Below are positions 2,121 to 64,000 of a stretch of 64,000 bases of DNA, piece after piece. The stretch is taken from positions 65,348,001 to 65,412,000 of the forward strand of contig JBNRSN020000014.1 in assembly GCA_051313645.2 (NCBI GenBank), in the 5' to 3' direction. Position numbers and translations under genes: made by a program. The stretch's first letter is position 1, and each line of letters opens with the position of its first letter. Source of the DNA: Centroscyllium fabricii. Lineage: Eukaryota. Under the pieces are notes generated by a model that saw only the letters and a list, made by a program, of their open reading frames with translations, was not told the origin of the DNA and did no database searches.

Positions 2121-4008
2121 CAGGGTTTGTTAATAACTGATCATTCTCCTTGTCATTCTTCTTAGGATTGTTGGGGCAGCTACACACCCAACAATGCTGT
2201 GAATGAGGTGCTGCAGCATCAATGAACCACCCATTTAATTAGTGAAAAAAGCCTGTGGCAGTCATTACTTGCAATTAGACTTCCCCGATATTGGTCCATC
2301 TTTTCAGTGTAATGCCAATGAGTTTGGGCTTTTCGATGAGAATCATGACTGCAATCATTTTAATGAGGACGAATTTTGCATCCAGCCTAGACAATTTTCA
2401 GGTGGCGCTACTTAACCATTTTTAGTCTAAACACTGTCTATTTCTTGGCTATAATGAATTTTTAGCTCCTTTCTAACAAATATCAAATCGTTTTGACAGA
2501 ATGAAGTGAGCACTGGTAGAATACGGGGCTCTTATTAAAATTGTAATATTTCAGTCAAGAAACTGAACAGGCGTTTATAATTTATTGGCTGTTTTGCTGG
2601 TTGTCAAACAGTCATCCTCATAAAAATAAGTGACTGTCACTCTGTGGTTTTAATTTCCAACAGATGAATGAACAGTCTAATTCTGTACAGCAACCTGTGA
2701 TGAAAAATCAGAATTGATGCCACAACCGCTCGCAAAATCACTTTATTTTTGGGACAAATGTGCCCATCACCTCTAACAGGTTCTTCCCAAAGTTCATTTT
2801 TCATAACTTGCTTAAGAATTCAGCTGTTGTGTTTCAGTGCTCATCTTGAATTCCTGCGAGACATGGCTCTGATCGTGTCCGGTATCAATTGCACTGTGAT
2901 AAACAATGCTGAAATGACAGATTTATGGCCTAAATGAAATTGTGTTCTATAAACTGTGAAACAAAGACTCATGACTCACCTCAGCTCCATACATTTTAAC
3001 CAGAGTTATGTTTCATGCTCTGATCTACACTGTATCATTTTGCTGAGTGGCCTCATGCGTGATATCAATCAAAGCTCTTGTTGCAAGATGTAAAATAAAG
3101 GACCATATAAAATCTTGGTATACAAACTGTGCATCCATTTATCTGCTATAATGACAAATAGAAATCGTTCCATTGGCCAGTTTCAATCTCGATTGATTAC
3201 AGCTAAATGTGTCTTGAAAACTCTGGCGGATACAGTTATATTATGATAAAGACAGGTTTCGTAATAAGTCCTGCTGAATATTTGCACCTTCAGCAATTTG
3301 CCAAAATATTACAGAGGTTTACATAAACTTGTAAAAATATTTTTGACTGAACAATGATTCCATTTGAATATTAATAAGTCACTGTAGCATTCCACCTCCC
3401 GTTTTACTTATGAAATAATGCTGTATTGCTACTGGATGCAAAATTTCGAAAGGATAACTCCATGGTATTTGTGGTTGTGGATAGTGTGAAGGATGGTTTG
3501 TTACCCTGAAGTCTGTGTATGCTGATGTACATAGCACATGTGCAGCAAAGAACTGAGAGTTCAGAAGAAGGATGTTGAAAAGATTGTGCCAAAATGTCAG
3601 CAGCATGTTAATGATTATAATGTGATAGTGTTGTGTAGGTTAATATAGTCTTATATTGTATCAAAATTTATCATGAGGTAGTTTGACATTTCGGGCACCC
3701 ATCATTGATTTTGTGTAAGGATACGGACTGATGATAGTTCATGCTAATCGGATCTGAACAGATGCATTTATCAATGAAAAACTTCAAGTCAACATTACTC
3801 ATGAATTAAAAAAGGATGGTCCCTCAGTATTCTGGTACACTGTAAAGGTGTTAACTGCTGTCCTGGCTAGAGAGATGCTCAGTGCAAGCTGACAATCATC
3901 AGACGAGTCTAGAAGTATCATGATGTTAAAGGAAAATATTCGCAGAGCTAAGAATCTAAAATAAAAGAACATATTATAAGGTCTTTAAGTATTTCTTTAT
4001 GACATTGC

Positions 4009-4371
4009 TGTTACGTCTATGTTATTAGGAGGACGAATAACGACAGACGCAGGTTAAGGTTCTAAACTGGGTGATGTTTACTGTGTATGGTAAAATCACA
4101 ACGAACCCATGTAGCGCTTCTCGCGCTAACATATTTACATGTAGCTCACACAGAGTCAAGTAGAGGACTGAACAGAAACTACACACACAAGCTTATATAC
4201 ACGACAGTGGCTGGTAAGGGTACTGCAGCCTGGTGGCATCACATGATACAGTGCCCAGCACCATCCTTAAAGGCACAGGCAATCGGATAGCACCGGGGTG
4301 ATATAGAGAGGTGATGCCGAGGTAGAGTCTAGCATCATCAGTACATAGGTGTATGTTGTCCATACACCACA
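4009..4371 (-). mobile_element. Probable solo LTR
   Basis: TGTTAC...ACCACA ends; flanks ATTGC/TTTGC (TSD with 1 mismatch); minus-strand TATATAA near 4193-4199. Confidence 0.6.
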
Positions 4372-4619
4372 TTTGCAGATTCAGAACCCTCAAGCACTAT
4401 AGATCGTCGGCTCCTGGCTCCACAGCACAATGAGGCCTACCAGCTCTCACACATTTGGTGGGAAACTGTGATCTCTGGCCTCCCACCTTAGGCCCACAGT
4501 CTAGGGTGTGCATGCACAGTGACACCATTTCCCTTACATTCCTTTTGTAGAGAACGGGGCTCCCTGATGGCTCAGTTAATAAATACAATAAGTGGGGCGC
4601 TACCGAGTCCCACAAAAGA

Positions 4620-7805: not shown

Positions 7806-8647
7806 CTAATGGATTTCAACTATACAAATACATTCGTCACTCAGCATGTAGCAAGGAATTTAACTGAGCTCGGTGCAGTTTTCTGTGGGCTGCTGATGTA
7901 TTTACTCATCTGATTGCAGCCTCTCATGTTTTCATTTGCTTTTGCATGCCAGAGATTGAAATGTCACCATGTCAATTTTGTTTGGGGAGTTTTTTTTTGG
8001 CGCTGCAAATCCAAATAGGAAGAATTACCGTATCTTTTAAACTGCATTTAAAATTTTTATATTAATTGCGTAAGATTAATATTATTAGTAATAAAGCTAC
8101 TCCTGGCATAATTTGATGGTTTGTCTCAGTGTCACAGAGACTAGTTGTAGGTGGCAGTCATTTGCCTGGGCCTCCCAAATGTCAGAGGATTAAAATCGGT
8201 ATTCTTTATCAATGATTATTGGGTTGCTGCATATGTCTTCTGTAATAAAACATGTGCAGCAATCATTTCTGTATGTTTTGAGTAATCTGATTTCTAAAAA
8301 ATTATACATACAGTCTCTGTAACACAAATTTTCCACATTAAAAAAATCTTCCTCATAAAAGTCAGGAAAATAAATAAATATATTGTAGCGCTTACAGGAC
8401 CCAAGAACCACGTGGGAGCCAGATAGACAGAAAAACACTAGTTTATTACATTACAGTAAGGAAGGAAGAGGAGCAGGTTTATTTAAACGGCCCGCTTTAG
8501 TGACCTCATCACGCCGAGAGATGTGGTGATGTCATCACGTCACCTGATGGGCGGGGCTATGCCCCGCAGCTCCCGAGGCGGATTCGTTAGTCTTGTGGTG
8601 CCGCCACACAGCTCCCCCCCAGAATCCGTCCGAGAGGATAAAAGAGT

Positions 8648-11283
8648 CTATGTGTAGCGTTGTGGTGGCCGTAATGTGCGGCCGGCATGTGTCGAGCGTT
8701 GTTCCTTGTTCTGCGGTGGAGTGTGGGCGGGTGTTGGTGTGGGAGGGCGTCCGCGTTGAGGTGGTTGGGCGGGGACTGTTGCATCACCCGCTATCACGTG
8801 TGCCGGTTTTAGCCGGTCTATAGAGACAGTTTCTGTCCTGTTGCCCAGCTGTAATTGAAAAGCTTTAGTTCCCGCCCGAAGCACTCTGTAGGGACCGTCG
8901 TAGGTTGGTTGCAGTGGCGAGCGATGGGCATCGTGGCGGACGAACACGTACTTGGCGTTTTTAATGCCGTCCGGTACACGTGCTGCCAGCTCTCCGTGCC
9001 GGGCCACCGGTACGGGTTTGAACGCTCGTGCCGGGTTGGCGAAGTCTTTTAGGAACTGGTCGGCCGACCAGGGAGCATTTGGCTCGGCGAGGAATTCGCC
9101 CGGCACTGTTAAAGTTTGGCCGTAGACGAGTTCTGCTGCCGAGGCGTTTAGGTCTTCTTTGACTGCCGAGCGCAGCCCGAGCAGTACCCACAGGAGACGG
9201 TCGGTCCATGACGCGTCTTTGAGGCTGGCCCGCAGGGATGCTTTCATGGAGCGGTGGAACCGTTCGCAGAGCCCGTTAGATTGTGGGTGGTATGCGGTGG
9301 TTCGGTGTAGGATTACCCCGAGGTCACGGGCGATGGCCGCCCATAGTGCTGACGTAAACTGGGGTCCTCTGTCCGACGTGATGTCGGTGGGCACGCCGAA
9401 ACGGGCGACCCAGGTGGCGATGAACGCCCTGGCCAAATCCGTGGTGCTGGTAGCAACGAGGGGGACTGCTTCTGGCCAACGAGTGTTGCGGTCGACCATG
9501 GTCATGACGTGTGTGTGGCCCCGGGATGGCGGTAGTGGCCCGACGAGATCGACATGGACGTGGTCGAAGCATCTGGCCGGCACGGTGAAGGTTTCCAGCG
9601 GTGCCCTGATGTGCTTGTGCACCTTGGCGCGCTGGCAGGCAATGCAGGAGTTGGTCCAGGCGCGGACGTCTTTGCGCAGGCAATGCAGGAGTTGGTCCAG
9701 GCGCGGACGTCTTTGCGCAGGCCGCGCCATACGAACCGGGCCGAAATTAGTTTGATGGAAGCGCGGGTGCCGGGGTGGGACAGGCCATGGAGGGTCTCAA
9801 AAATGTGTCGCCTCCATGCGTGGGGGACGACGGGTCTGGGCTGCGGTAGGGAAACGTCACAGCAGACTACGGTGGCCGCGGGGCCGTGTGCGATTTTGGC
9901 CAAGTGTAGGCCAGGGAGGTTTCCTGCTGGGTCGAGCAGGTCTGGGTCGGCCAGCTGGTCTGCTGCCAGCTTGGCGTAATCGACCGCCATTTGGGCGGCG
10001 TTGATTGCGGGACGTGACAGGCAGTCAGCAACCACGTTGTCGCGGCCGGAGATATGCTGGATGTCGGTAGTGAACTCCGACATGGCCGCGAGTTGCCGCT
10101 GCTGCCAGGCCGACCAGGGTTCGGCAATCTTAGCCATTGCAAAAATGAGCGGCTTGTGATCGACGAAAGCTGTGAAGGGACGGCCCTCCAGGAGGAAGCG
10201 AAAATGGCGCACTGCGAGGTAGAGAGCGAGGAGCTCCCTGTCGAAGGCGCTGTACTTAACCTCTGGGGGCCGAAGTTGTCGGCTGAAGAAGGCCAGGGGC
10301 TGCCAAGAGTTGCCGGTCCACTGTTCAAAAACGGCCCCGACAGCGTGGTCGGAGGCGTCAGTGGTGAGGGCCACTCTGGCGTTGGGCCTGGGGTGGGCTA
10401 GGAGGGTGGCGTTGGCTAGGGCGGTTTTGGTTGCGGTGAAGGTGGTGGCGGCGTCGGCTGTCCACTCGACCACAGTTTTGCCGGACTGCCCGTGTGTGGC
10501 CTGATATAGGGGGGCCATGAGAGCGGCTGCTCCTGGGATGAAGCGGTTATAAAAATTAACCATCCCGAGGAATTCCTGCAGCCCCTTAATGGAGTGCGGG
10601 CGGGGGAATTCCTGAACTGCCTGCACCTTGGAGGGCAGGGGTATGGCCCCGGTTTCGGAAATGCGGTGGCCGAGGAAATCTATGGTCTCGAGGCCGAATT
10701 TGCATTTTGAGGGGCTTAATATGAGGCCGTGTTCGACCAGGCGCTGGAACAGGGTCCTGAGGTGCAGGAGGTGCTCCTGGGGGGAGGTGCTGGCCACGAG
10801 GATGCCGTCCAAGTAGACGAAAATGAACTTCAAGTCCCGTAGGACCAAGTCCATTAGGCGCTGAAAGGCCTGGGCCGCATTTTTAAGTCCGAAGGGCATC
10901 CTAAGGAACTCGAAGAGGCCAAAGGGGGTAATTACGGCTGTTTTGGCGATGTCCGCCGGGTGCACCGGGACCTGGTGGTAGCCACGCACCAGGTCGATCT
11001 TAGAGAAGATCATGCAGCCTGCTAGTCTGGCTGAGAAATCCTGGATGTGGGGTACGGGGTACCTATCCGGGGTGGTGGCGTTGTTTAGGCGGCGGTAGTC
11101 GCCGCAGGGGTGCCAACTCCTGCCCGGCTTGGGGGCGATGTGGAGGGGAGAGGCCCAGAGGCTGTTGGAGCGGCGGATTATGCCGAGTTGCTCCATGGTG
11201 CGGAACTCGGTGCGCGTGATCTCCAGTTTGGCCGGGTCCAGCCTGCGGGCGTGGGCATGCGCGGGAGGGCCGGAGGTGGTAAT
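8648..11283 (-). pseudogene. pol: pol (RT, RNase H, integrase) of the CsRn1-type Gypsy, frameshifted
   Basis: CGDYRRLN, RMPFGLKNA, YLDG (YLDD variant), TTDASD, HVHVDLVGP, TSDRG, GLCERFH; 41-bp tandem duplication 9635-9716 shifts the frame. Confidence 0.92.
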
Positions 11284-13828
11284 CATAGAATCATAGAATC
11301 ATAGAAGATAGGAGCAGGAGTAGGCCATTCGGCCCTTAGAGCCTGCTCCGCCATTCAACGAGATCATGGCTGATCTTACACGTTCAGTACCCAGTCCCTG
11401 CCTTCTCCCCATATCCCTTAATCCCTTTAGCCTGAAGAAATATATCTAGTTCCCTCTTGAATATATTCAATGAACCGGCCTCCACCGCCCTCTGTGGTAA
11501 GGAATTCCACAGGTTCACCACTCTCTGTGTGAAGTATTTCCTCCTCATCTCAGTCCTACAAGGCTTACCCCTTATCCTTAGACTATGCCCCCTGGTTCTT
11601 GACTCCCCGGCCATCGGAAACATCCTTTCTGCATCTAACCTGTCCACGCCTGACAGAATTTTATAAGTCTCGATGAGATCCCCTCTTAATCTTCTAAACT
11701 CCAGCGAGTATAAGCCCAGACTACACAATCTCTCCTCATAAGTCATTCCTGCCATCCCAGGTATCAGCCTGGTGAATCGTCGCTGTACTCCCTCCATGGC
11801 AAGAACATCCTTCCTCAGATGCGGCGACCAAAACTGCACACAATACTCAAGGTGTGGCCTCACCAAGACCCTGTACAGCTGCAGCAAGACATCCCTATTC
11901 CTATACTCAAACCCTCTTGATATAAAGGCCAACATACCATTTGCCTTTTTAACCGCCTGCTGCACCTGCATGCTCACCTTCAGTGACTGGTGCACAAGAA
12001 CACCCAGATCTCTTTGCACTTCCCCATCTCCCAATCTATTGCCGTTCAAATAATATTCTGCCTTTCTGTTTTTGCTACCAAAGTGGATAACCTCACATTT
12101 ATCCACATTATAGTGCATTTGCCATGTGTTCGCCCAATCCCCCAATCTGTCCAGGTCGCTCTGGAGCTTCCCGACATCCTCCTCAGGGCATACTCCCCCT
12201 CCAAGCTTAGTGTCATCTGCGAATTTGGAGATGTTACATCCAATTCCCTCATCCAGGTCATTAATATATATTGTGAACAGCTGGGGTCCCAGTACCGACC
12301 CCTGTGGTACCCCACTAGTCACTGCCCGCCAATCAGAAAACGACCCGTTTATCCCAACTCTCTGTTTTCTATCTGCCAACCAGTTCTCTATCCATGCCAA
12401 TACCTTGCCCCCAATCCCATGAGCCTTAATTTTGCCTGCCAATCTCCTATGAGGGACCTTGTCAAAGGCTTTCTGTGTAACGGATTGCTGTAGCGGATTG
12501 TGGGCGGGGCCCAAATGCAGAGACACTGAAACGTCCTTTAAAAGCAAAACTCCTTTAATATATATATATAACAAAAACCACATAAATAGCATTCACATAC
12601 ACAAATCTAGTAAACATCTTAAACAAGTCTTAGCTGAAGACTGACACAGAACTTCCCAAAGTTGTGAGAAATGAGTAGAGGAATGCTACGCAGCCAAGCG
12701 CATCATTTACCCGAGGAATTCATGTCCAAACTTCTGTATAACAGGCATCAATGTCCATCTTAAACAAGTCTTCCTCTGTGAGCAGGACATCACAATACAA
12801 CCGCATCATCAGAGAACAGAACAAGTTTTCCTCTGCGAGCAGGACATCACAATACAACTGCCTCATCAGAGAATTTAGGAACAGCTTCTGTATAACAGGC
12901 ATCAATGTCCAAACCTGAGTTCGGGTGATAATGAACCAAATGTCCAAGTAGTAGATTCTGAACTCTCTTCCGAGTCCGCCCTGCTGGTCGAGACTCACTC
13001 CGGCTGAGTCTTCAGAGGAAGAGAATACCTGATCCACAAGCAGGGGAACGCCCTTACTCGACAGATGAATGTCCAAGCCTGAGCTTCCGATAGCAGAGTG
13101 CAATGTCAAGGCTGAGTGATATGAGCTCCAAACCCCATTGCCTCTGTCAGCAGCTCAGCCTGAACTGCAGAATAGCAGAGTGCAATGTCAAGGCTGAGTG
13201 ATACGAACTCCAAACCCCATCGCCTCTCCCACAGCTCAGCACAGAAGCAGTAACCACTTCTTCCAGTGGTTTGTAGAATGTCTTAATGAAATCCAGCTAA
13301 TTCAATGATCCCGCACCTGCCACATGCAAGACCTCCAGCTTATGAGCAAAACCGGCAAATAGATCATTTGGGTTTAACCAACCAGCTGCAGGCACTGACA
13401 TAAAGCACACACAGGAATGAGAGCACCTAATTGAGGTAATTTAACAATACAAGCTAACACAACAGGATACAAAGATGGATACCTTAAAGGGGTATACACC
13501 TTAAAAAGGTATGCCAACTGTGACATTCTGGAAGTCCAGATAAACCACATCTACTGGCTCTCCCCTATCTATTTTATCGGTTACATCCTCGAAGAATTCC
13601 AATAGATTAGTCAAGCACGATTTACCTTTTGTAAATCCATGTTGACTGTGTCCGATCCCGTCACTCTTAGTCAAGTGATCTGCTATTACGTCCTTAATAA
13701 TGGACTCTAGCATTTTGCCCACAACCGATGTAAGGCTTACCGGTCTATAATTCCCCGCCTTCTCTTTACCCCCCTTTTTGAATAGTGGGGTAACATTAGC
13801 TACCCTCCAATCCCTGGGCACCATTCCA
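11284..13828 (-). mobile_element. 5'-truncated CR1 LINE inserted in the Gypsy
   Basis: GNYRPVSLTS, GVPQGSVLGP, FADD, RPHLEYC; (TTCTATGA)n 3' tail; flanking GTAAT duplication (11279-11283/13829-13833). Confidence 0.93.
12476..13525 (-). mobile_element. 1.05-kb solo LTR inserted in the CR1 RT
   Basis: TGTAAC...GTGACA ends; 5-bp TSD TTCTG; splits DFQ|KAFDKV; internal direct repeats (~12770-12880, ~13090-13245); strand uncertain. Confidence 0.8.
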
Positions 13829-15063
13829 GTAATAAAATGTTCCACCCCGTGTTTGGCCGTGCGGGTGGTGAACGTGGGGTTGGTGAGGGTGGGGAACTCT
13901 GCGAGGAGCGTGCCATATGCGTCAGAGTTCCGGGAGCGACATTGTGCCGCCGCGTGGGCCAGGAGTGCGGGCCCTGTGGAGCATGGGATGGTCGACATGT
14001 TGTGGATGTCGACCAGGCGGCGCCGGGTCATGTCGACCAGGAGGTCGTGGGCGCAGAGGAAATCTGCCCCGAGGAGGGGTGAAGTGACCTGGGCCGTGAC
14101 AAAGTCCCAGTGATACATGTGGCCGGCGAGCTTGATAGTGAGCTTGCGGGTGCCGTACGTCTTTACATCAGAGCCGTTGGCCGCTGCGAGTGGCGGGCCC
14201 CGGGTGCCTTGTTTGGCTTCTGCTGGGGAGGCTGGCACGATGCTGTGCTGTGCGCCTGTGTCGCAGAGGAACCGGAGGCCTGTGCTGCTGTCTGTGACAA
14301 AGAGCAGTGCTCCTGTGTGTCCTACAGACATAGTGGGGGCTGGGCCGGGCCGTGGCTTAAATGTGCAGGGCTGTACGCAGCGGTGCGCTTTGTTTTCGAA
14401 CCGCGTGTGGTAGTAGCACCAGCCAGTGCTTGATGGATGCGGTTGCCTGGGTGGGCGCGGGGCCCTGCGTTCAGGTGTTGGGTTGGACCTGGGGGGCGAG
14501 TGGTTGTGCTCGATGGATGCGGCGTTAGGGTCGCACGTGGTGGAGCGGGTGCGCTCGGCCACCATGAGCCTGTCGGTTTCCTCGGCTAGCTCGTCCCCGC
14601 TCCGGTGGCAGAGGGCCGCCAGTGCCGGTGTGATGGAGCGGGGTAGTTTGAGGAGGAATATGGTGCGGAACAGGGAGGCGGGATCGGCGGTGAGCGCTTG
14701 CATTTGACCCCAAAGGTCCGATGGGTCTGCGTCCCCGAGTTCAGGGAGGTTAAGGAGCTGGCAGTCGCGCTCGAATTGGGAGGGGGTAAATTTTTTTAAA
14801 AGCGCGGCCTTGAGGAACTCATACCTGCCTGCTGTGGGCACACGCTGTAGCTTCGACCACATCCGATCGATCGTCGATTGCGGTAGGGCCGAAAAGACCA
14901 GGTCGTAGCGGTCATCCCCCTGGATGCCGTGTGTGCGGCAGCTGGTTTCTATGCACATAAACCAGGCCGCTGGGCGTTGCTCCCAGAACTCCGGTAGGGT
15001 ACGTCTGTGCCCGAAGTTCTGGCCAAGTCCTTGTGTTCGAGAAGCTTGGTTCCTTGAAGACAT
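13829..15063 (-). pseudogene. gag: gag and aspartic protease of the CsRn1-type Gypsy
   Basis: LPEFW..PAAWF, CYYHTRF...HRCVQPC knuckle, FLCDTGA protease motif; ORF runs into CR1 sequence after HGVEHFIT. Confidence 0.9.
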
Positions 15064-15639
15064 GTTTTTCTTTTAAAGTGTCCTGAGGCTGCTTGATCTT
15101 TAATCCTGTAGTTGCTTTTTCTCCTTGGAAGTCGTTCCAAGTCGGGGTCACTGTAGCGCTTACAGGACCCAAGAACCACGCGGGAGCCAGATAGATAGAA
15201 AAACACTAGTTTAATACATTACTGTAAGGAAGGACGAGACTGAAACATGAGGAGCAGGCTTATTTAAATGGCCCGCTTTAGTGACCTCATCATGCCGAGA
15301 GATGTGGTGACGTCATCACGTCACCCGATGGGCGGGGCTATGCCCCGCAGCTCCCGAGGCGGATTCGTTAGTCTTGGTGTGCCGCCACAATATTGTATAA
15401 AATTCCATATGTATCAAAATGGGGAATATGCAGCAGAAATACCACATGAAGCCAGTTACTGTCCATGATAACAAAGTAGAAAGGAAGAGGAAAACAACAG
15501 ACATCTTTATTTTCCTAATAAGGATATCTATTACAAAGTGGATAAAACAGTATATTCCAGAGAAGGTAGCTTTGTAAAAGTTGAACATTGTAAATTGGGT
15601 TCTGGATTCTATTAATTGCTTCTGCTCTACTCTGTAATG

Positions 15640-15944: not shown

Positions 15945-18934
15945 GGGGTCAATGTTCCTCAAGGTATGGGGAATTGGTGGGTTTTCCGTGGGTCACGTTT
16001 TCTTCCCATTTTCTAAAGGGTCTGAGAGATCCATGCAATTTTGGCTAAATTGGCCAATTCATTTCCAGCATATGGGGACCCTTGCTAATTGACTATTTCC
16101 AGTCAGAAAGTCCCACAGCATGATGTCATCATTGCCAGTGGTTTTAAGGCAGCCAGAAAGCCTTCCTTACTCTGCAGGTTTCCAACAGCTTCCCAGAAGA
16201 TGGAACAGGAACCTGCAGCAGCTGTGGCCAGAGGGAGGGCCGGACCCTCTCGAAAATATGATGATGCTGCATTCCAGGCATTGGTAGATGGGACTAGGGC
16301 CCACATGGAGGTCCTGTTCCCTGCCCCAGGGAGGAAGAGACCTGCCAATCAAACCAAAGCTGCTTGGCTGGAGGTGGCTGAGGATGTGAATGCCCTGGCC
16401 CTCACACCTCGTACGTGGCTCCAGTGCCGGAAAAGATTCCAGGACCTACGTCGAACAGGAAAAGTAAGTATGAGGTATCCATCACCCTCAATCTGATCCC
16501 CATTGCCTTTCCTCACCAGCACTTAGCTTTAGCAATCTCTTCTTCCACATCCCACTTGACACTCACATCCATGCACCCTTACCCATTCACTTTCTCTCTA
16601 TGATCGCATTCACATAACTATTCCACTATGCAGCTCTCACACTCCCTATCACTCTGATGCTATGAAAACAACTGACAACACACAGGGAGGGTCCTTGGTC
16701 TTGCAACCTCACTCAATCTTTGTCTCCCTCTAAGTATCTATGCTATGCAATCTCTACACTCACTCCTTCATTCTCACTCAAACTCCACTTGTCTCCCTCA
16801 TTGCAGGAAAAGAGAGCTCACAATAAGTGAGAAAGAATGAGGACAGGAGGAGGGCCACCCTCAATAGCAGACCTCACCCCCTGGGAGGAAGGAGCAATGG
16901 AAATTACCGGGGATAATGCTGCTCCAGAATTTGGGCCAGGAGAGGCAGGAGCATCCTCTGAAGCTGGTGACAGAATAGTTTTCCATCTCTCTCATTGACA
17001 TCGCATGACTCGCAGATAATAATTCTGAAGCTACATCATATGGACTTATGATCATCTGCAAAATGCAATGTGCATGTAACCTTGGCATCACATCTCTAAC
17101 TCTTTCCATTACTTCCCCACAGGACCCGCGAGAGCCCCTGGCCCCACTCTGGAGGAGGAAGAGGCTGAGCAGCCAGACTCCTCAGAGGAAGCTCCAACCT
17201 CTGAGGGCACAGAATCAGCAGAATTAAGCACACCCAGCACCAGCGCAGACACTCACACCTTGGTGGGACCTTCGGGACATAGAGTAGTGTTGTCACCTGG
17301 TGTATCACAGCTCACAAGTGAGCATCAGCAGATTGTGGAGACAGGGACAGCAGTGGAACATCCTAGTCGGAGGGGGCATGACTCTGCCAGCTCATCTCAG
17401 CTGCATGTCGACCCTCAGCATCTGGATCCATCCGTTAGTTCAGGGGTAATGTGACTCCATGAACAGGTGCAGGAGTCTCTGTCAGGTTTTGTCTCCAGGG
17501 TCGCTGCGAGTGTGGAGCGAAAGCAGGAGTCTGTAGCAAACATGAGCAGAGCCTTTGTGGAGTCAGTGGTGCATGAATGCATCACCATGGAAAGGATGGC
17601 AACCTCCGTGGAAAGGATGGCTACAGTAGATGAGAGGATGGCTATGGCCATGCAGGTGCTAAGTTGCCAGGGAATGGAAAACATGGTGAGTGTTCAGAAT
17701 AGAATGGCATCTCTTGAGGAGAGATGGGTATCTATTGAACAGAGAAACCAGACCTTCATGTAAGTTCTTCTGAGTAGGACTGCCATTGCAGATATGGGTC
17801 CCTGTGGCCTCCCTGATGTGCAGCAAGGTGCTCTCCAGCCACTTGCAGGCACTGAGGGGGACCTGACCCATGAGAGGGAGGTTGCTGGCAGACCTCAAGG
17901 AAGTGGGGGCTCCTCTCCAAGCACTCACACTTCCATGCCACTGCAGAGCCCTCGGTCAGAGCCCCGCCGGAGTCCACACCCAGGTGAGATAGACGTCTCC
18001 ACTCCTGCACAGCTGCAGGAGCAGCAGACTGCTGATGAGCCATCACAGGCTCACCACCCCAGAGGATGCCCACCAAAGGCGTTGAGACAGGAGCAGCAGG
18101 AAAGTGAGCAAGGGGCCTCCACATCTGCTGAAGCCACAGGGGAACCACTACGTAGGAGCACGTGTAAGAGAAAGAAACTGCACAAATAGTCACAAGGGTA
18201 GTCACTTAGGTGATATTTGATGCTTAATGTGTGAAAGCCATCATATGAATCAGGTACATAAAAAATCTGATGGCAACTGCTGCAGTTGAGGCGTCTCTCA
18301 TTTCGCGAATGGGGCTTTCACTTTGAGGGCTTAGGATTACTTGCAGTTGTCAGGCTGCTGGTCAACTAGCTAGGAATCCGCAGGGTTCGGCCATTGTCGA
18401 TGCTCAGGGAAGAAGCAGCGAGGCTAAAGTGTTTGATGTACAAGGCTAAGCAAATCTGGCCAGGATAATAGTGTTCCTTGCATCCCGGCCAGCAATGTTC
18501 TCGCGTACAGGTCTGGTTAAGATTGGAACAAGTTACCCCAGGCCTGAAACAGCTAAGTCCTGCCACCTGCAAATGATGCCTGTTTAAAAATCTTCTTTTT
18601 TGATTGACCTGCTGCTGACAGTCAGCAAGCCAATAGTGTCCCCGCCAGGTTTTAACGCCATGGTTCCCACCAGGCATGTTTAACGTGGGAAAAGGCTCCA
18701 ATTAGAAAGGGGCCCTTAAAATAGCATTATAGATGCCAATCATTGCTCATTAAGGAGCCTAACGACCATCCCCACCGGTGGTGGGTGGGACTGAAGCGGG
18801 CCGATCGGACCCGCCGGGCTGAAATTAACAAGCTGGCGGGAAACCGGCGGGAGGGGTCGCGACCCCCCGTTTCCTCAATTTTGCCTCCTCGGCTGCCGAA
18901 AAAGCCGCCTGTCAGCTCAATGAAAATTGAGGCC
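15945..18934 (+). mobile_element. Non-autonomous Harbinger transposon carrying only the spliced Myb/SANT gene
   Basis: TIR GGGGTCAATGTTC / GGCCTCAATTTTC, TSD ATT; no nuclease ORF seen. Confidence 0.75.
16200..18189 (+). pseudogene. Harbinger Myb/SANT-like protein, 3 exons (16200-16463, 16807-16966, 17123-18189)
   Basis: AWLEVAEDVNA...RTWLQCRKRFQDL; GT-AG introns phase 0 and 1; EKRAHN...RTGGG in exon 2; basic C-terminus RRSTCKRKK; in-frame stops. Confidence 0.85.
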
Positions 18935-27730: not shown

Positions 27731-28640
27731 CTAGAAGCAGCTGTCTATGAGCTTCTGATGGACAGCCCCTCCACTTTCCACATGCCTCCTGCATTGGGGC
27801 TGCTGCTGATGCTCCTCATCTTCCTGCTCCTCCTCCTCCTCCTTTTTCTCCTCCCCCTCCTCTTCCTCCTCTGGTGCTGCAACAATGTCTGGCAGTAGTG
27901 GCTGGGTCCTGAGGATTGTCAGGTTATGCAGCATGCAGCAGACAACGATGAAGTGGGAGACTTGCTCAGGCGAGTACTGGAGGGCTCCTCTGGAATGGTC
28001 CAGACAGTGGAACCGTTGTTTGAGCACGCCGATTGTCTGCTCAATGATGTTCCTAGTCGCCTGATGGCTCTCGTATCGCAGCTCAGCAGGGGTTTGGGGC
28101 ACATGGAGCGGGGTCATCAGCCAGGAGCTCAGAGCATATCCCTTGTCCCCAAGAAGCCATCCACCTGGGTGATTTGGTGCCTGAAAGAAGTCTGCCACAG
28201 TAGTCTGGCACAGTATGAAGGCATCGTGGGTGCTGCCTGGATAGTGGGCATTCACAGCGAGGATCAGCTGTCGGTGGTCACACACTAGCTGGAAGTTTAG
28301 GAAATGGAAGCCCTTTTTATTGCGTTAATCCTCAGCATTGCGATACAGCGCCCGCAAAGCCACATGCGTGCAGTCAATGGCACCCTGCACCATGGGGAAG
28401 CCCTGCACATTGGCAAACCCCATATGGCATTCCTGTATGCTTGTCCGGGATCATGGGGAACGAGATATACTGTCGCCTCCTGTATAGGGCTGCTGTGACC
28501 TGACGGATGGAGCAATGTGCCGCAAACTGCGAGATGTTAGCTATGTCCCCCAGCACCTGCCTGAAATGAGCCAGTGGCATATAAGTTGAGAGCCACAGTA
28601 ACCTTGACTGCCACGGACAGAGATGTCCAGGCCTCACGCA
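27731..28640 (-). pseudogene. Harbinger DDE nuclease (HARBI1-like transposase)
   Basis: VAVKVTVALNLYATGSFQ, GAIDCTHV, YPGSTHDAFIL, LLGDKGY, RNIIEQTIGVLKQRF, CCMLHN. Confidence 0.9.
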
Positions 28641-59349: not shown

Positions 59350-60140
59350 CACGCCTTCATCCATTTTGGTGTTTGCGGGCTCTCTTGGGTCAACAGCTCT
59401 AGACAACGTGTCTGCTGTGTACATCAGTTTACCCGGAGTGTATGCAACATTCAGTCTATAGCGTTGCAGCCTGATCATCATTCTTTGTATTCTAAGCGGA
59501 CAGACATTTAGTGTCACCCCGAGCTGGCATTTCTCTCTATTCAGTTTCAGGTTTGTTTTCCTTGTTGCTTCCAGCACTTTTTTCAGTCTCTCGTCATGCT
59601 CAGTTCTCATGGTTCCCCATACTATGATGCCATCCATTGAGGTAGCAACTCCCTCCAGGTGCTCATATGGATAGTTTTGTGATACACTTCAGGAGCTGAG
59701 GCAATGCCAAATGGTAACCTTAGGAATCTGTATCTGCCAAATGGACCATTGAATGTGCACAGTCATGAACTTACCTCGTCCAGTTTCAACTGCCAACATC
59801 CTGATGATGCATCTTACTTGCTGAAATACTTTGCATTTGCAAACTGTGACATGATTCCCTCACGTGTCGGAAGCTTGAAGTGATCTCTCTTTATTGCTCT
59901 GTTTAGATCTCTTGGAATTATCGGGTTCCCCGAATGTTGAGCTTCCCACATGAATCTAAATGGGTCTGTGAGATGGATGCAATTTTAACTCAATTGGCCA
60001 ATTGATTTCCAGCATGTGGGAACCCTTGGCAATTGAGTATTTCCAGTCAGAAAGTTGCAGAATATGATGTCAGCATTGCTGCTGCTTTTAAGGTTCACAG
60101 CAAGCCTTGCTTCTTCTGCAGGCTTCCAAGCGTACCACCT

Positions 60141-61175
60141 ATGATGGCACAGGAGCCTGCAGGAGTTATGGCCAGCGGGAGGGCAAGAGCTGCACCCAAA
60201 TTTGACGAGGCATTACTGGATGGGGCTAGGGCTCACAGGGAGGACCTGTTCCCTTCTTCAGGGAGGAAGAGGCCTCCCACTGAGACCAAGGCTGCTTGGC
60301 TACAGGTGGCTGGGGAAGTCAACTCCTTGGGCCTCACAAGGCGCACCTGGGTGCAGTGCAGGAAAAGATTCCATGACCTTCATCGCACTGGAAAAGTAAG
60401 TATGAAGTTTCCATCACCCTCAATCTGATCCCCATTGCCCTTCCTCACCAGCACTCAGCTTCAGCAATCTCTTCCTCCACATCCCACTTCACACTCACAT
60501 CCATGCACCCTTACCCATTCCCTCTCTCTATGCTCACAATCACATAACTATTCCACCATGCAGCCCTCACACTCCCTCTCACTCTGATGCTTTGAACACA
60601 ACTGACAACACACAGGGAGGGCTCTTGGTCTTGCAACCTCACTCCATCTTTGTCTCCCTCTAAGTATCTATGCTATGCAATCTCCACACTCACTCTTTCA
60701 TTCTCACTCAAACTCCACTTGTCTCCCTCATTGCAGGAAAAGAGAGCTCACAACAAAAGAGAGTGAGCCAGGACAGGAGGAGGCCCACCCTCAATAGCCC
60801 ACCTGACCCTCTGGGAGGAAGCCATCCTGGAGATAGTAGGGGCTGATGCAGCTGCGGAAGTTGGGGAAGGAGAGACAGGTGCTTCCCCGCAAGCTGGTGA
60901 CAGAATAGTTTTCCATCTCTCTCATTGACATTGCATGAGTCGCTGATAATAATTCTGAAGCTACATCATATGGACTTATGATCATCTGCAAAATGCAATG
61001 TGCATGTAACCATGGCATCACATCTCTAACTTGTTCCATTACTCCCCCACAGGACCATCGAGAGCCCCTGTCCCCACTGTGGAGGAGGAAGAGGCTGAGC
61101 AGCCAGACACCTCAGAGGAAGCTGCAACCTCTGAGGGCGCAGCGTCAGCAGAATTCAGCGCACCCAGCACCACCG
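60141..61175 (+). pseudogene. Harbinger Myb/SANT gene, second copy of the 16200 family (exons 60141-60395, 60737-60896, 61053-~61175)
   Basis: AWLQVAGEVNS...RTWVQCRKRFHDL; colinear with ~16010-17240. Confidence 0.88.
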
Positions 61176-61199
61176 CAATCATAGGTTCCGCACTCATGA

Positions 61200-61690
61200 G
61201 GATGGTCTCAACCGGGAACTTGGCTTCATGTCACACTACATGTAACCCCACCTGACGTTGGGTCATCCAGACTCAAGTCGTCGTTGGCTTGTTCTCTCTA
61301 CACAGATGTGGCTGGACCTGCTGTGATTTCCAGCAAATCATTTTTATTTCATTTTATTTTTTACTGCTTGTTTGTTTTTTGTTTTTCATATGGCATGTGC
61401 AACATTTGACCTCTTGTGATCCCACCACATTGTTCTTTGTTGGAATGTTTTGCTGACTGACCTGTTTGGACACCATTTACACCTATGATTGCGGTGATTA
61501 TCTCTCTGCCGAGGTGTGATAAAGGGCAGTTAGAAAAATTACCTGTAATCATCTAGCATTGTTCTCTGACTATATATGCTGTGCCTATGTGCATTTCTTC
61601 ACTTCACCTGATGAATGAGTAGTGCTCCAAAAGGTTGTGATTTCAAATAAAACTGTTGGACTATAACCTGGTGTTGTGTGACTTCTTACA
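61200..61690 (+). mobile_element. Penelope-related 3' repeat with degenerate hammerhead motif
   Basis: CCTGATGAATGAGTAGTGCTCCAAAAG...AATAAAACTGTTGGACTATAACCTGG at 61607-61670. Confidence 0.5.
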
Positions 61691-61699
61691 CTGATCTAT

Positions 61700-62580
61700 C
61701 CAGGCATCTGAAGCGCATCTTCAGCAAGCCGATGGTTTGCTCAATAATGGATCTGGTGGAAATGTGGCTGGAGTTGTAGCACTCCTCAGCTTCGTTGGTT
61801 GGCCTCCTCAACAGCATCATTAGTCAAGTCCTCAGGGGATATCACTTGTCTCCAAGTAGCCACGGTACTTGGCACAAACATGCAAAATCTTCTTCTTGTG
61901 GTCACACACCAGCTGAACGTTAAGGGAGTGGAAGCCCTTGCAGTTGACAAAAACACCTGGACTGCGATGGGGTGCCTAAGGGCCACATGTGTGCAGTCAA
62001 TGGCGCCCTGTACCCTTGGAAAGTCTGCCAGATTAGCTAATAATAATTCAACTTTTATTGTCGTTATACAATGTACAAGTACATGAATAACGAAATGTGA
62101 CCTTGCAAGCTCCCAAGAGTCCAGCAAAGCTGCTGCGTCTGTGCGCGCCGCCATTCCATCTTTCCATCATTCCGACAATCTTCAGCCAACCGCCCCTCCC
62201 CGGGCTCCTTTCGTGACCTTCTGCACCTGGTATTCCCCCATCCAAGTACTAACCAGGCCTGGCCCTGCTTAGCTTCCATGCCTTGCCAGTGACCCTGTCC
62301 CTAGTCCCAGGAACAGGGCTAGTCCCAGGAATAGGGATCTAACTGCTCGCACCCTCACACTTGCGCAATCCTTGATGAAGTGGATGTGATTGTGCGCGTG
62401 GGAAAAGAGGGCATCGGTTAGCTGCGTGATGCAAGTGTGTGCGGCCGCCTGGGAAATGCCGCTGATGTCTGCTGCTGATCCCTGGAATGAGCCTGAGGCA
62501 AAAAAGTTAAGTGCGGTGGTGCCTTTGATGGCCACTAGTAAGGTGTGTCCACCTGGTGCGCTGGGCTCCAGGATTTGCTG
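61700..62580 (-). pseudogene. Harbinger DDE nuclease fragment, interrupted
   Basis: ALNFFASGSFQGSAADISGISQ; FPRVQGAIDCTHVAL; region upstream of the 60141 Myb copy's convergent partner position. Confidence 0.82.
62038..62340 (-). mobile_element. Short insertion with 5S rRNA-derived internal promoter (SINE3-like)
   Basis: Minus strand 62277-62223 GGAAGCTAAGCAGGGCCAGGCCTGGTTAGTACTTGGATGGGGGAATACCAGGTGC matches the 5S internal control region; tail ACAATAAAAGTTGAA(TTA)n. Confidence 0.7.
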
Positions 62581-64000
62581 TAGCATTCCCCGTATCTACC
62601 CTATTGAACCCTTTTAAAATTTTCAACACTTTGTTCAGATCATTCCTAAACCTTCTACACTCAAGGGAATACAAGACAGGTTTATGCGATCTGTCCTCAA
62701 AGCCTTGGGATCATTCAGAAAGGATAGCTGAATACAGTGATAGCAGAAGACTGGTAAAACACTGGATTGCATATTGGTTTGTAGGTTTGAATGTTGGTCT
62801 GCACAAAGACTCAAATAGATGACCACAGCATTGTGAAACCAACACTTGATGGCTACACTACCAGGTTCCTGTGGGTAACTGCATATTTAGATCAAAGCAA
62901 CAATAATCTACTGTTACAGAAACAAGCTGGTTGTGCCAGAGGAAGAAGTATGTGCATTTATTATAAAATATACTGGAGCTCAATGATTATATTTTGAGTC
63001 AGAGACTCCCCGACTTTCTTTTATTTGCCTCAGTTATAATGAGTTTTGTTAGTTCTTGACAGAATCTTGTTCCACCTGAGGTAAAAGGGCAAGGGACAGG
63101 AGGGTCAGTAAATACTGCCCATCTATCCTCACTGCACGTGCACATCAGCTGCCATTGGATAAACATTGTTTCATTGCAATTAAATAACTGCAGAGAAATA
63201 ACATGTATTTCAATATGGCCTTGCCATGTCCGCAGGTCATCCCAAAGTGCTTGGCAACAGGACTTCGATTTACTCCACAATTATACGCAGCTGATCGCTG
63301 CCTTAAGCTGGACATATTCCTTCTGCTGGTTTCAAAAAGTAACATAACATTTAATTTTGTTGTTTAGCTATGAAAACTATATATATGTGTTGACCCATAA
63401 TTCCTTTTATAGTGTCATTTACTTTGAACTTTCGACAGTAGCATTCCCTATCTTCTACTGCACGCAAAAAGAGGCTCGCATAAATATTGAACAGCAACTT
63501 AGCAGTTTAGAATGGACACTTGTAGAGAGATTTAAAGCTACGCTTTGATGAGATTTTCAACCCCCCTGGGTAACAGACAATCTTTCTCATGTAACAGTTT
63601 AGTAGCAGCATGGTCTAATGAAGATGAAAGAATGATGCTACTTTTCTTCAAGCTCCTAAAATAAAATGCCCTTCAATTTATCACCAAAAATTAATAATTC
63701 CCTTTATTGATATGCTGGAAAAGTTTGCCGGGAAAGAATTTGCATGATGAGATTTTTTGTGTGCGCGTAACCTTTCATAGGTTGCTCACATTATTCTTGA
63801 AGCACCTGAATTTGATACTTGATCCCTTTCGAGAGCCATTCAAATACCATGCATGCAGCCATTGTTTATGGGCTATTAGAATGAGCAGCCAAAGCAATGT
63901 TTGAGATATCTGAGGGTACAGTTTAACATATTCTATTAAAGGATAAGTGTGGTTACTGCAGCCTGTCATAATCATATTATGTACAATATTACACGGGGAC

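Follow-up and report, generated by a model that had tools for sequence, protein, structure and literature searches.

Two copies of a Harbinger Myb gene lie in the window (the whole 64,000-nucleotide stretch of DNA analysed here), and because their introns are far more alike than their exons, the reverse of the normal pattern, the locus raises the question of how introns can stay so similar beside coding sequence that does not. When copy A (16200-17243) and copy B (60144-61173) were aligned segment by segment, mismatches were found at 54 of 252 aligned nt in exon 1 (78.6% identity, plus a 12-nt gap), 21 of 341 in intron 1 (93.8%), 38 of 160 in exon 2 (76.2%), 7 of 156 in intron 2 (95.5%), 12 of the first 121 nt of exon 3 (90.1%), and 39 of the 170 nt upstream (77.1%); exons 1 and 2 together (92/412) thus stand apart from the introns (28/497; Fisher p = 1e-13). 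These values reproduce the segment divergences of the original prediction. The 12-bp indel that it reported is indeed in exon 1 but is private to copy B, as the B consensus has 88 codons, and the switches that it placed at the splice sites fall there only roughly, with the last ∼35 nt of exon 1 and the first 20 nt of exon 2 still at low divergence. From their own consensus, the introns 1 of copies A and B have decayed at 10 of 343 and 6 of 341 positions, respectively, and the intron difference between the window copies is mostly post-insertion decay.

The two copies represent two subfamilies (A and B) of one Harbinger DNA transposon with thousands of copies. Their parts are given below, with the exon structure and splicing of the Myb gene predicted from GT..AG ends and the reading frame.

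15945..18934, + strand: copy A, subfamily A; internal-deletion derivative with most of the transposase missing, imperfect terminal inverted repeats (TIRs), and ATT flanking both sides as a 3-bp duplication
15945..16199, + strand: copy A left terminus with promoter and 5' UTR; lineage-specific, differing from B by 25%; A/C-type subterminal motif GCAATTTTGGC
16200..16463, + strand: copy A Myb exon 1, the Myb/SANT DNA-binding domain; lineage-specific, A-B dS 0.47, dN 0.14
16464..16806, + strand: copy A intron 1 (GT..AG); shared backbone, A-B 2.3%; contains a three-site patch also present in the distant D2/G types
16807..16966, + strand: copy A Myb exon 2; lineage-specific, A-B dS 0.51, dN 0.12; premature TGA
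16967..17122, + strand: copy A intron 2 (GT..AG); shared backbone, A-B 1.9%
17123..18189, + strand: copy A Myb exon 3, ending at the stop codon; part of the shared backbone, A-B dS 0.016, dN 0.025; two premature stops
18349..18507, - strand: copy A remnant, 3' end of the convergent transposase gene
18508..18934, + strand: copy A right terminus; lineage-specific, A-B ∼16%, near the tip up to 25%
59915..60143, + strand: copy B left end, truncated at its 5' side; carries the B-type motif GCAATTTTAAC
60144..60395, + strand: copy B Myb exon 1, with the private 12-nt deletion
60396..60736, + strand: copy B intron 1
60737..60896, + strand: copy B exon 2; premature TGA
60897..61052, + strand: copy B intron 2
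61053..61177, + strand: copy B start of exon 3, truncated
61689..62587, - strand: B-type transposase fragments collinear with copy B (pieces 61689-62042 and 62341-62587)

The match of copy A to full copies breaks at ∼18510. Copy B is truncated and interrupted, and the B-type transposase fragments differ from the B consensus at 30 of 604 positions. Once the exons are joined, both copies give a continuous Myb frame with few private stops, with both introns bounded by GT..AG, and Pfam Myb_DNA-bind_5 (PF13873) scores above cut-off in exon 1 of each. Of the 92 joints in contigs of four possible RNA runs, 15 were inspected and none of these was a GT..AG intron skip, which speaks neither for nor against splicing. 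None of the runs listed in a sequencing-run search with locus L205 was of RNA; this locus appears, from its joint (3263-4404) and depth, to carry an unrelated 1.1-kb high-copy insertion, so that words shared with it are a poor guide to the element. Because a pyrimidine tract running into CTGCAG just 5' of the ATG (16165-16180 and 60110-60125) resembles a splice acceptor, the gene may have a non-coding first exon upstream. Elsewhere in the window, direct repeats beside copy A (8384-8608 and 15152-15389, 89% alike) bracket ∼6.5 kb, and 8384-15389 is probably an LTR retrotransposon; 28110-28402 holds part of a Harbinger-like transposase that is more remote, 68% to the A/B family.

A full copy of the element is ∼4.25 kb long and consists of a TIR, the three-exon Myb gene, a convergent intron-less transposase, and a second TIR. 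The transposase is of the DDE_Tnp_4 (HARBI1-like) kind (PF13359, E = 5.6e-32 in a B-type copy, L159), TIRs of 12-16 nt with G-rich tips were found in 9 of 9 copies having both ends located, and 6 of these 9, as well as copy A, have a 3-bp target duplication. In many PIF/Harbinger families this duplication is TAA/TTA; here it is AAA, AAG, ATG, TTT, or ATT, and in none of these copies TAA/TTA. With its DDE_Tnp_4 transposase, Myb/SANT protein, TIRs, and 3-bp duplication, the element resembles Harbinger3_DR and is an ordinary PIF/Harbinger by every feature tested.

A first look at the 7.2-Gb genome returned ∼10,000 candidates for the region, and exact matches genome-wide numbered 3383 for an intron-1 27-mer and 7125 for an exon-1 22-mer. 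The sample combined the best matches to each copy with 90 of the first 100 intron-anchored and 70 of the first 100 exon-anchored matches, for a total of 235 distinct copies, of which ∼160 were hand-assigned to 20 groups from an exon-1 tree; several groups comprise only 2-5 copies, and several consensuses were built from 3-5. An outlying family, X, was sampled through 20 best matches and 14 long stretches. In the first MAFFT run and every later projection, insertions with respect to the reference are disregarded, and the L136 frame drops 6 nt of exon 2. In the exon-anchored sample, intron 1 lay less than 0.13 from the B intron in 58 of 60 copies, the other two being family X, so the pattern is no artefact of anchoring in the intron, and 29 further A-like and ∼50 B-like copies exhibit the same exon/intron contrast as the window pair.

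The A and B consensuses diverge by 18% and 17.5% in exons 1 and 2, respectively, and by 2.3% and 1.9% in introns 1 and 2; the upstream region stands at 25% and exon 3 at 0-3%. Myb exons 1-2 are 18% apart as a whole (dS ∼0.5, dN/dS ∼0.3), as against a dS of 0.035 and a dN of 0.033 in the transposase, and four-fold sites differ at 15 of 55 positions in exons 1-2, 1 of 179 in exon 3, and 6 of 164 in the transposase, beside 8 of 346 and 3 of 155 positions in the two introns. Far from being equal to or below intron divergence (∼2%), dS in exons 1-2 is more than an order of magnitude above it. The contrast is nonetheless not one of exons versus introns. The introns, exon 3, and the transposase are slow; exons 1-2 and both termini are fast (along the element, the left 520 nt, exon 2, and the right end, with the 3' UTR junction moderate). 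The claim that introns are more alike than exons thus holds family-wide for exons 1-2, but the rest of exon 3 behaves like an intron. Across 87 exon-1 codons, subfamilies A and G are separated by synonymous differences at 46 positions, beside a divergence of 4.7% in intron 1, and in general subfamily pairs with an exon-1 dS of 0.5 to saturated have introns 2-7% apart. Per-segment divergences summed over 15 neighbouring pairs, comparisons that carry no direction, were 0.102 upstream, 0.093 in exon 1, 0.023 in intron 1, 0.069 in exon 2, 0.031 in intron 2, 0.028 in exon 3, and 0.019 in the transposase. Judged by dN/dS, mostly 0.1-0.4, exons 1-2 are under purifying selection.

Both termini diverge between A and B about as much as exons 1-2 do, and their subterminal motif differs by lineage. 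The motif GCNATTTTAAC is found at both ends of B, D, G, and H1 (12 matches across 23 left ends of B, and 38 across 16 of its right ends). This is not so for A, C, and H2, which have GCAATTTTGGC at the left end and other variants at the right. Because the Myb-like protein of zebrafish Harbinger3_DR is described as binding a 9-bp subterminal motif (PMC9710019), the repeated motif is, by analogy, a candidate Myb site. H2 (L115-L117, L155, L256, and others; ∼1.55 kb) is an abundant non-autonomous chimera with a C-type left end, a G-type exon 1, a B-type intron-1 tract, a large deletion, and a C-like right end; H1 has the same kind of gene but D1-type ends, so the ends have been replaced at least twice. 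In some copies (L154, L175, L190, L198, and L202) the right tip departs from the usual form and almost perfectly mirrors the left tip of the same copy, which may reflect end-to-end copying.

The slow parts exchange patches. A nearest-site incompatibility test, which asks whether neighbouring informative sites are more compatible than permuted ones, gave p<0.001 for the backbone, 0.009 for intron 1, and <0.001 for the 5' end, versus 0.11 for exon 1 and 0.027 for exon 2, and when exon and intron trees were built separately the exon-1 tree was rejected by the intron-1 data and vice versa (AU p<0.001). At three sites of intron 1, the haplotype AAA links the two exon types that are furthest apart, being carried by 23 of 26 A-type and 9 of 13 G copies, whereas 12 of 15 C2 and 24 of 26 B copies have CTC; a four-site exon-3 haplotype is common to A and I, and B-type alleles lie within intron 1 in 14 of 17 copies of H2, which combines a G-type gene and a C-type left end. 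Type switches per kb, which are non-independent counts, came to 22/47.9 in exon 1, 59/59.7 in intron 1, 21/23.0 in exon 2, and 131/120 in exon 3. Some recombination signal is present in D1-type exons too (runs p = 0.001-0.015), and the idea that intermediate types are block mosaics of two others is partly true for D1; it was rejected for B, B2, C1, C2, and D2, and the exon changes of B and C are interspersed rather than in blocks (runs p = 0.2-0.9). The idea that short exon patches were imported along with amino-acid changes found no support either, as 51 of 193 synonymous changes were adjacent to such changes versus 47 expected (p = 0.24). Replacement of exons through cDNA was dropped because exon 3 is unaffected, the untranscribed ends are affected, and no intron-less copy was apparent in the coverage maps of the sampled copies.

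Family X supplies an outside measure. At four-fold sites of exons 1-2 it (14 copies) is 0.44-0.49 from each of five pooled groups, and the deepest ingroup split, A-FG, is of comparable depth (0.51). In the backbone, the distance from X is largest in intron 2 (0.33-0.36) and comes to 0.17-0.23 in exon 3, the transposase, and intron 1 (0.17-0.21 for the last), versus 0.01-0.12 among the ingroup; introns therefore do diverge once a lineage becomes isolated. A-FG has an exon/backbone ratio of 16 and X one of 2.5, a ratio of ratios of 6.4 (95% 2.7-15.5). As a proxy inside one genome, X agrees with exon lineages being older than intron lineages, which the opsin model would predict across species. 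X is the younger family, its best matches lying 1-2% from their own consensus, and X (L311-L322) carries ∼1.3-1.5 kb of additional sequence that separates the Myb 3' UTR from the end of the transposase. The ages of the other subfamilies overlap (0.030-0.059), so these subfamilies coexisted, and for the same reason an attempt to root the exon ladder by age failed. Over 14 subfamilies, distances in the exons correlate with those in the backbone (Spearman 0.73), the two trees form largely the same ladder, and several subfamilies sit almost on internal nodes of the ML exon tree (B tip 0.007).

We favour, with a probability of roughly 0.55, the explanation that old haplotypes of the DNA-binding exons and termini are carried on a recombining backbone, as in the L/M opsins. 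It is favoured because of the slow/fast partition, the recombination in the backbone and the patches in individual copies, family X, the overlapping ages, the end motif, and the gibbon opsin parallel. Lineages would keep swapping introns, exon 3, and transposase by recombination, whether through gene conversion or through gap repair after excision, and selection would remove exchanges that separate the Myb DNA-binding domain from its own binding sites. Exons 1-2 would then be the record of true, old splits, their synonymous differences riding along, and the end motif, if it is the Myb site as in Harbinger3_DR, would be matched to the DNA-binding exons as a set; once 15-30% divergent, the exons may also resist conversion mechanically, which would sharpen the borders. 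Mosaic exchange between subfamilies, one of the options of the original prediction, thus gains support from the patches, the incompatibility tests, and family X, as a repeated, family-wide process. An extension that we regard as tentative is that the family is a recombining population with a self-recognition locus, in which a shared pool of transposase, introns, and Myb tail serves many Myb/end specificity types, and old Myb DNA-binding alleles persist with their matching end motifs as such types. A possible driver would be non-autonomous parasites capturing the ends of successive lineages (D-type in H1 and C-type in H2, with a G-type gene).

The main rival to exchange is a single lineage in which the backbone gives the true, short time and stepwise selection at the nucleotide level has favoured change in the 5' exons and at the ends, with protein constraint driving the changes to synonymous sites; escape could be from small RNAs made by deletion derivatives that retain the 5' and 3' parts, or from host DNA-binding repressors. 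Coverage does show the 5' part and right end retained by abundant derivatives, and identical 20-mers between A and B are as few as 14 of 245 in exon 1 and 0 of 135 in exon 2. Yet exon 3 lies on the same predicted mRNA and is unaccelerated, ∼70% of its 20-mers being identical (620/878, with 615/1008 in the transposase), and its first 400 nt are present in 71-75 copies versus 78 of 98 for exon 2. The non-autonomous step from H1 to H2, which has no exon excess (12/263 versus 15/341 in the intron, part of the latter count being the swapped tract) and no synonymous change in exon 1, is as escape would have it; the four-fold sites, which put no subfamily further from X than another, the divergent untranscribed termini, and ages out of step with the ladder are not. 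In its simple form, diversification of the mature mRNA by piRNA escape, as originally suggested, is not supported, given the slow exon 3 and transposase and the divergent termini. Escape confined to the 5' exons is kept alive by the correlation and shared ladder of exons and backbone, as one lineage with faster exons would give, by short exon-tree tips that fit succession better than old coexisting lineages, and by the interspersed changes of B and C. It is also kept alive by synonymous changes unclustered beside amino-acid changes, and by the exons 1-2 of X, whose divergence is still ∼2.5-fold that of most of the X backbone. Apart from the interspersed changes, these points also weigh against exchange, as does the fact that exon 2 and D1-type exons recombine somewhat too. 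Myb moreover acts in trans, so that selection on a copy's own gene is weaker. We consider such escape unlikely overall.

The same slow exon 3 and transposase argue against functional constraint on the introns (an enhancer, RNA structure, or small RNA), another of the explanations first put forward. Introns that are 2-7% apart where exon-1 dS reaches saturation, and an intron 1 that is closer to X than the four-fold sites of exons 1-2 are, would be expected from constraint, but it would have to span ∼2.6 kb to cover exon 3 and the transposase, whose four-fold sites are equally low. Intron 1 divergence, when checked, equalled backbone synonymous divergence at all depths, intron alleles travel in patches, and the introns of X differ by 17-36%; constraint is accordingly quite improbable. 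Nor do mutational hot spots in exons 1-2, CpG decay, or sampling offer more than a very slim chance of an explanation. Exons are CpG-richer than introns, but so is slow exon 3, and because dead B copies decay alike in exons 1-2 (0.038), introns (0.032), and exon 3 plus transposase (0.050), and transversions outnumber transitions 8 to 2 among the exon-1 four-fold differences between A and B, CpG decay does not account for the contrast; the exon-anchored copies speak against sampling. Active lineages may mutate differently, since the intron differences between subfamilies are transversion-rich (ts/tv 0.56, 67/120) relative to post-insertion decay (1.08, 210/195; p = 3e-4). Adjacent double changes in the introns, over all subfamilies, are also commoner between subfamilies than in such decay, and the two excesses hint that active lineages pass through an error-prone repair step. 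That one window copy is a one-off recombinant is refuted to near certainty: mosaic copies do occur in the family, but both window copies match their own subfamily consensus in all segments, the consensuses diverge in the same way, and the contrast recurs in the A-like and B-like copies counted above.

We found no report of an intron-exon reversal in a transposon in the literature searched, coverage of which was incomplete. In venom gene families, such a pattern is usually attributed to positive selection acting on the protein ("accelerated evolution"). As there, where venom SVMP introns are given as 88-99% identical (PMC4963849), introns here are more alike than coding sequence among paralogues, but dN/dS is well below 1. 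The closest parallel is the primate L/M opsins, in which introns are reported to show more similarity than exon sites of either kind, synonymous or non-synonymous, with dN not above dS, explained in gibbons by intron conversion with selection opposing exon conversion (PMC3213168). Synonymous exon divergence here likewise exceeds intron divergence with dN not above dS, in exons 1-2 only and not in exon 3; however, the opsins as described there are two tandem host genes under organismal selection, whereas this is a dispersed selfish family of ∼20 lineages, and the contrast reaches 10-20-fold. Divergent clades of maize Mutator, also a two-gene DNA transposon, are described as exchanging TIRs, mudra, and mudrb, which uncouples TIRs from genes and yields new combinations (PMC10401008). 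The end swaps of H1 and H2 are comparable, but most subfamilies here keep ends and DNA-binding exons together with the rest homogenised, and the portion of the Mutator text available mentions no intron-exon contrast. For Harbingers, Myb proteins are reported to be more divergent than transposases, recombination among teleost sublineages is presented as rare, between families, and at the level of protein trees, and Harbinger is listed as undetected in elephant shark (PMC9179366). Unlike in that account, exchange here is repeated, fine-scale, and within one family, and divergence is limited to exons 1-2, synonymous sites included.

DNA transposon subfamilies are usually treated as clonal, with trees and ages taken from any part of the element. 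The parts of this element give ages differing 10- to 20-fold, and the transposase alone would merge lineages that the DNA-binding exons split. A misleading signal of conserved introns is thereby explained without hidden intron function, and the natural series of Myb domains and end motifs offers a testbed for the evolution of specificity despite trans-acting proteins.
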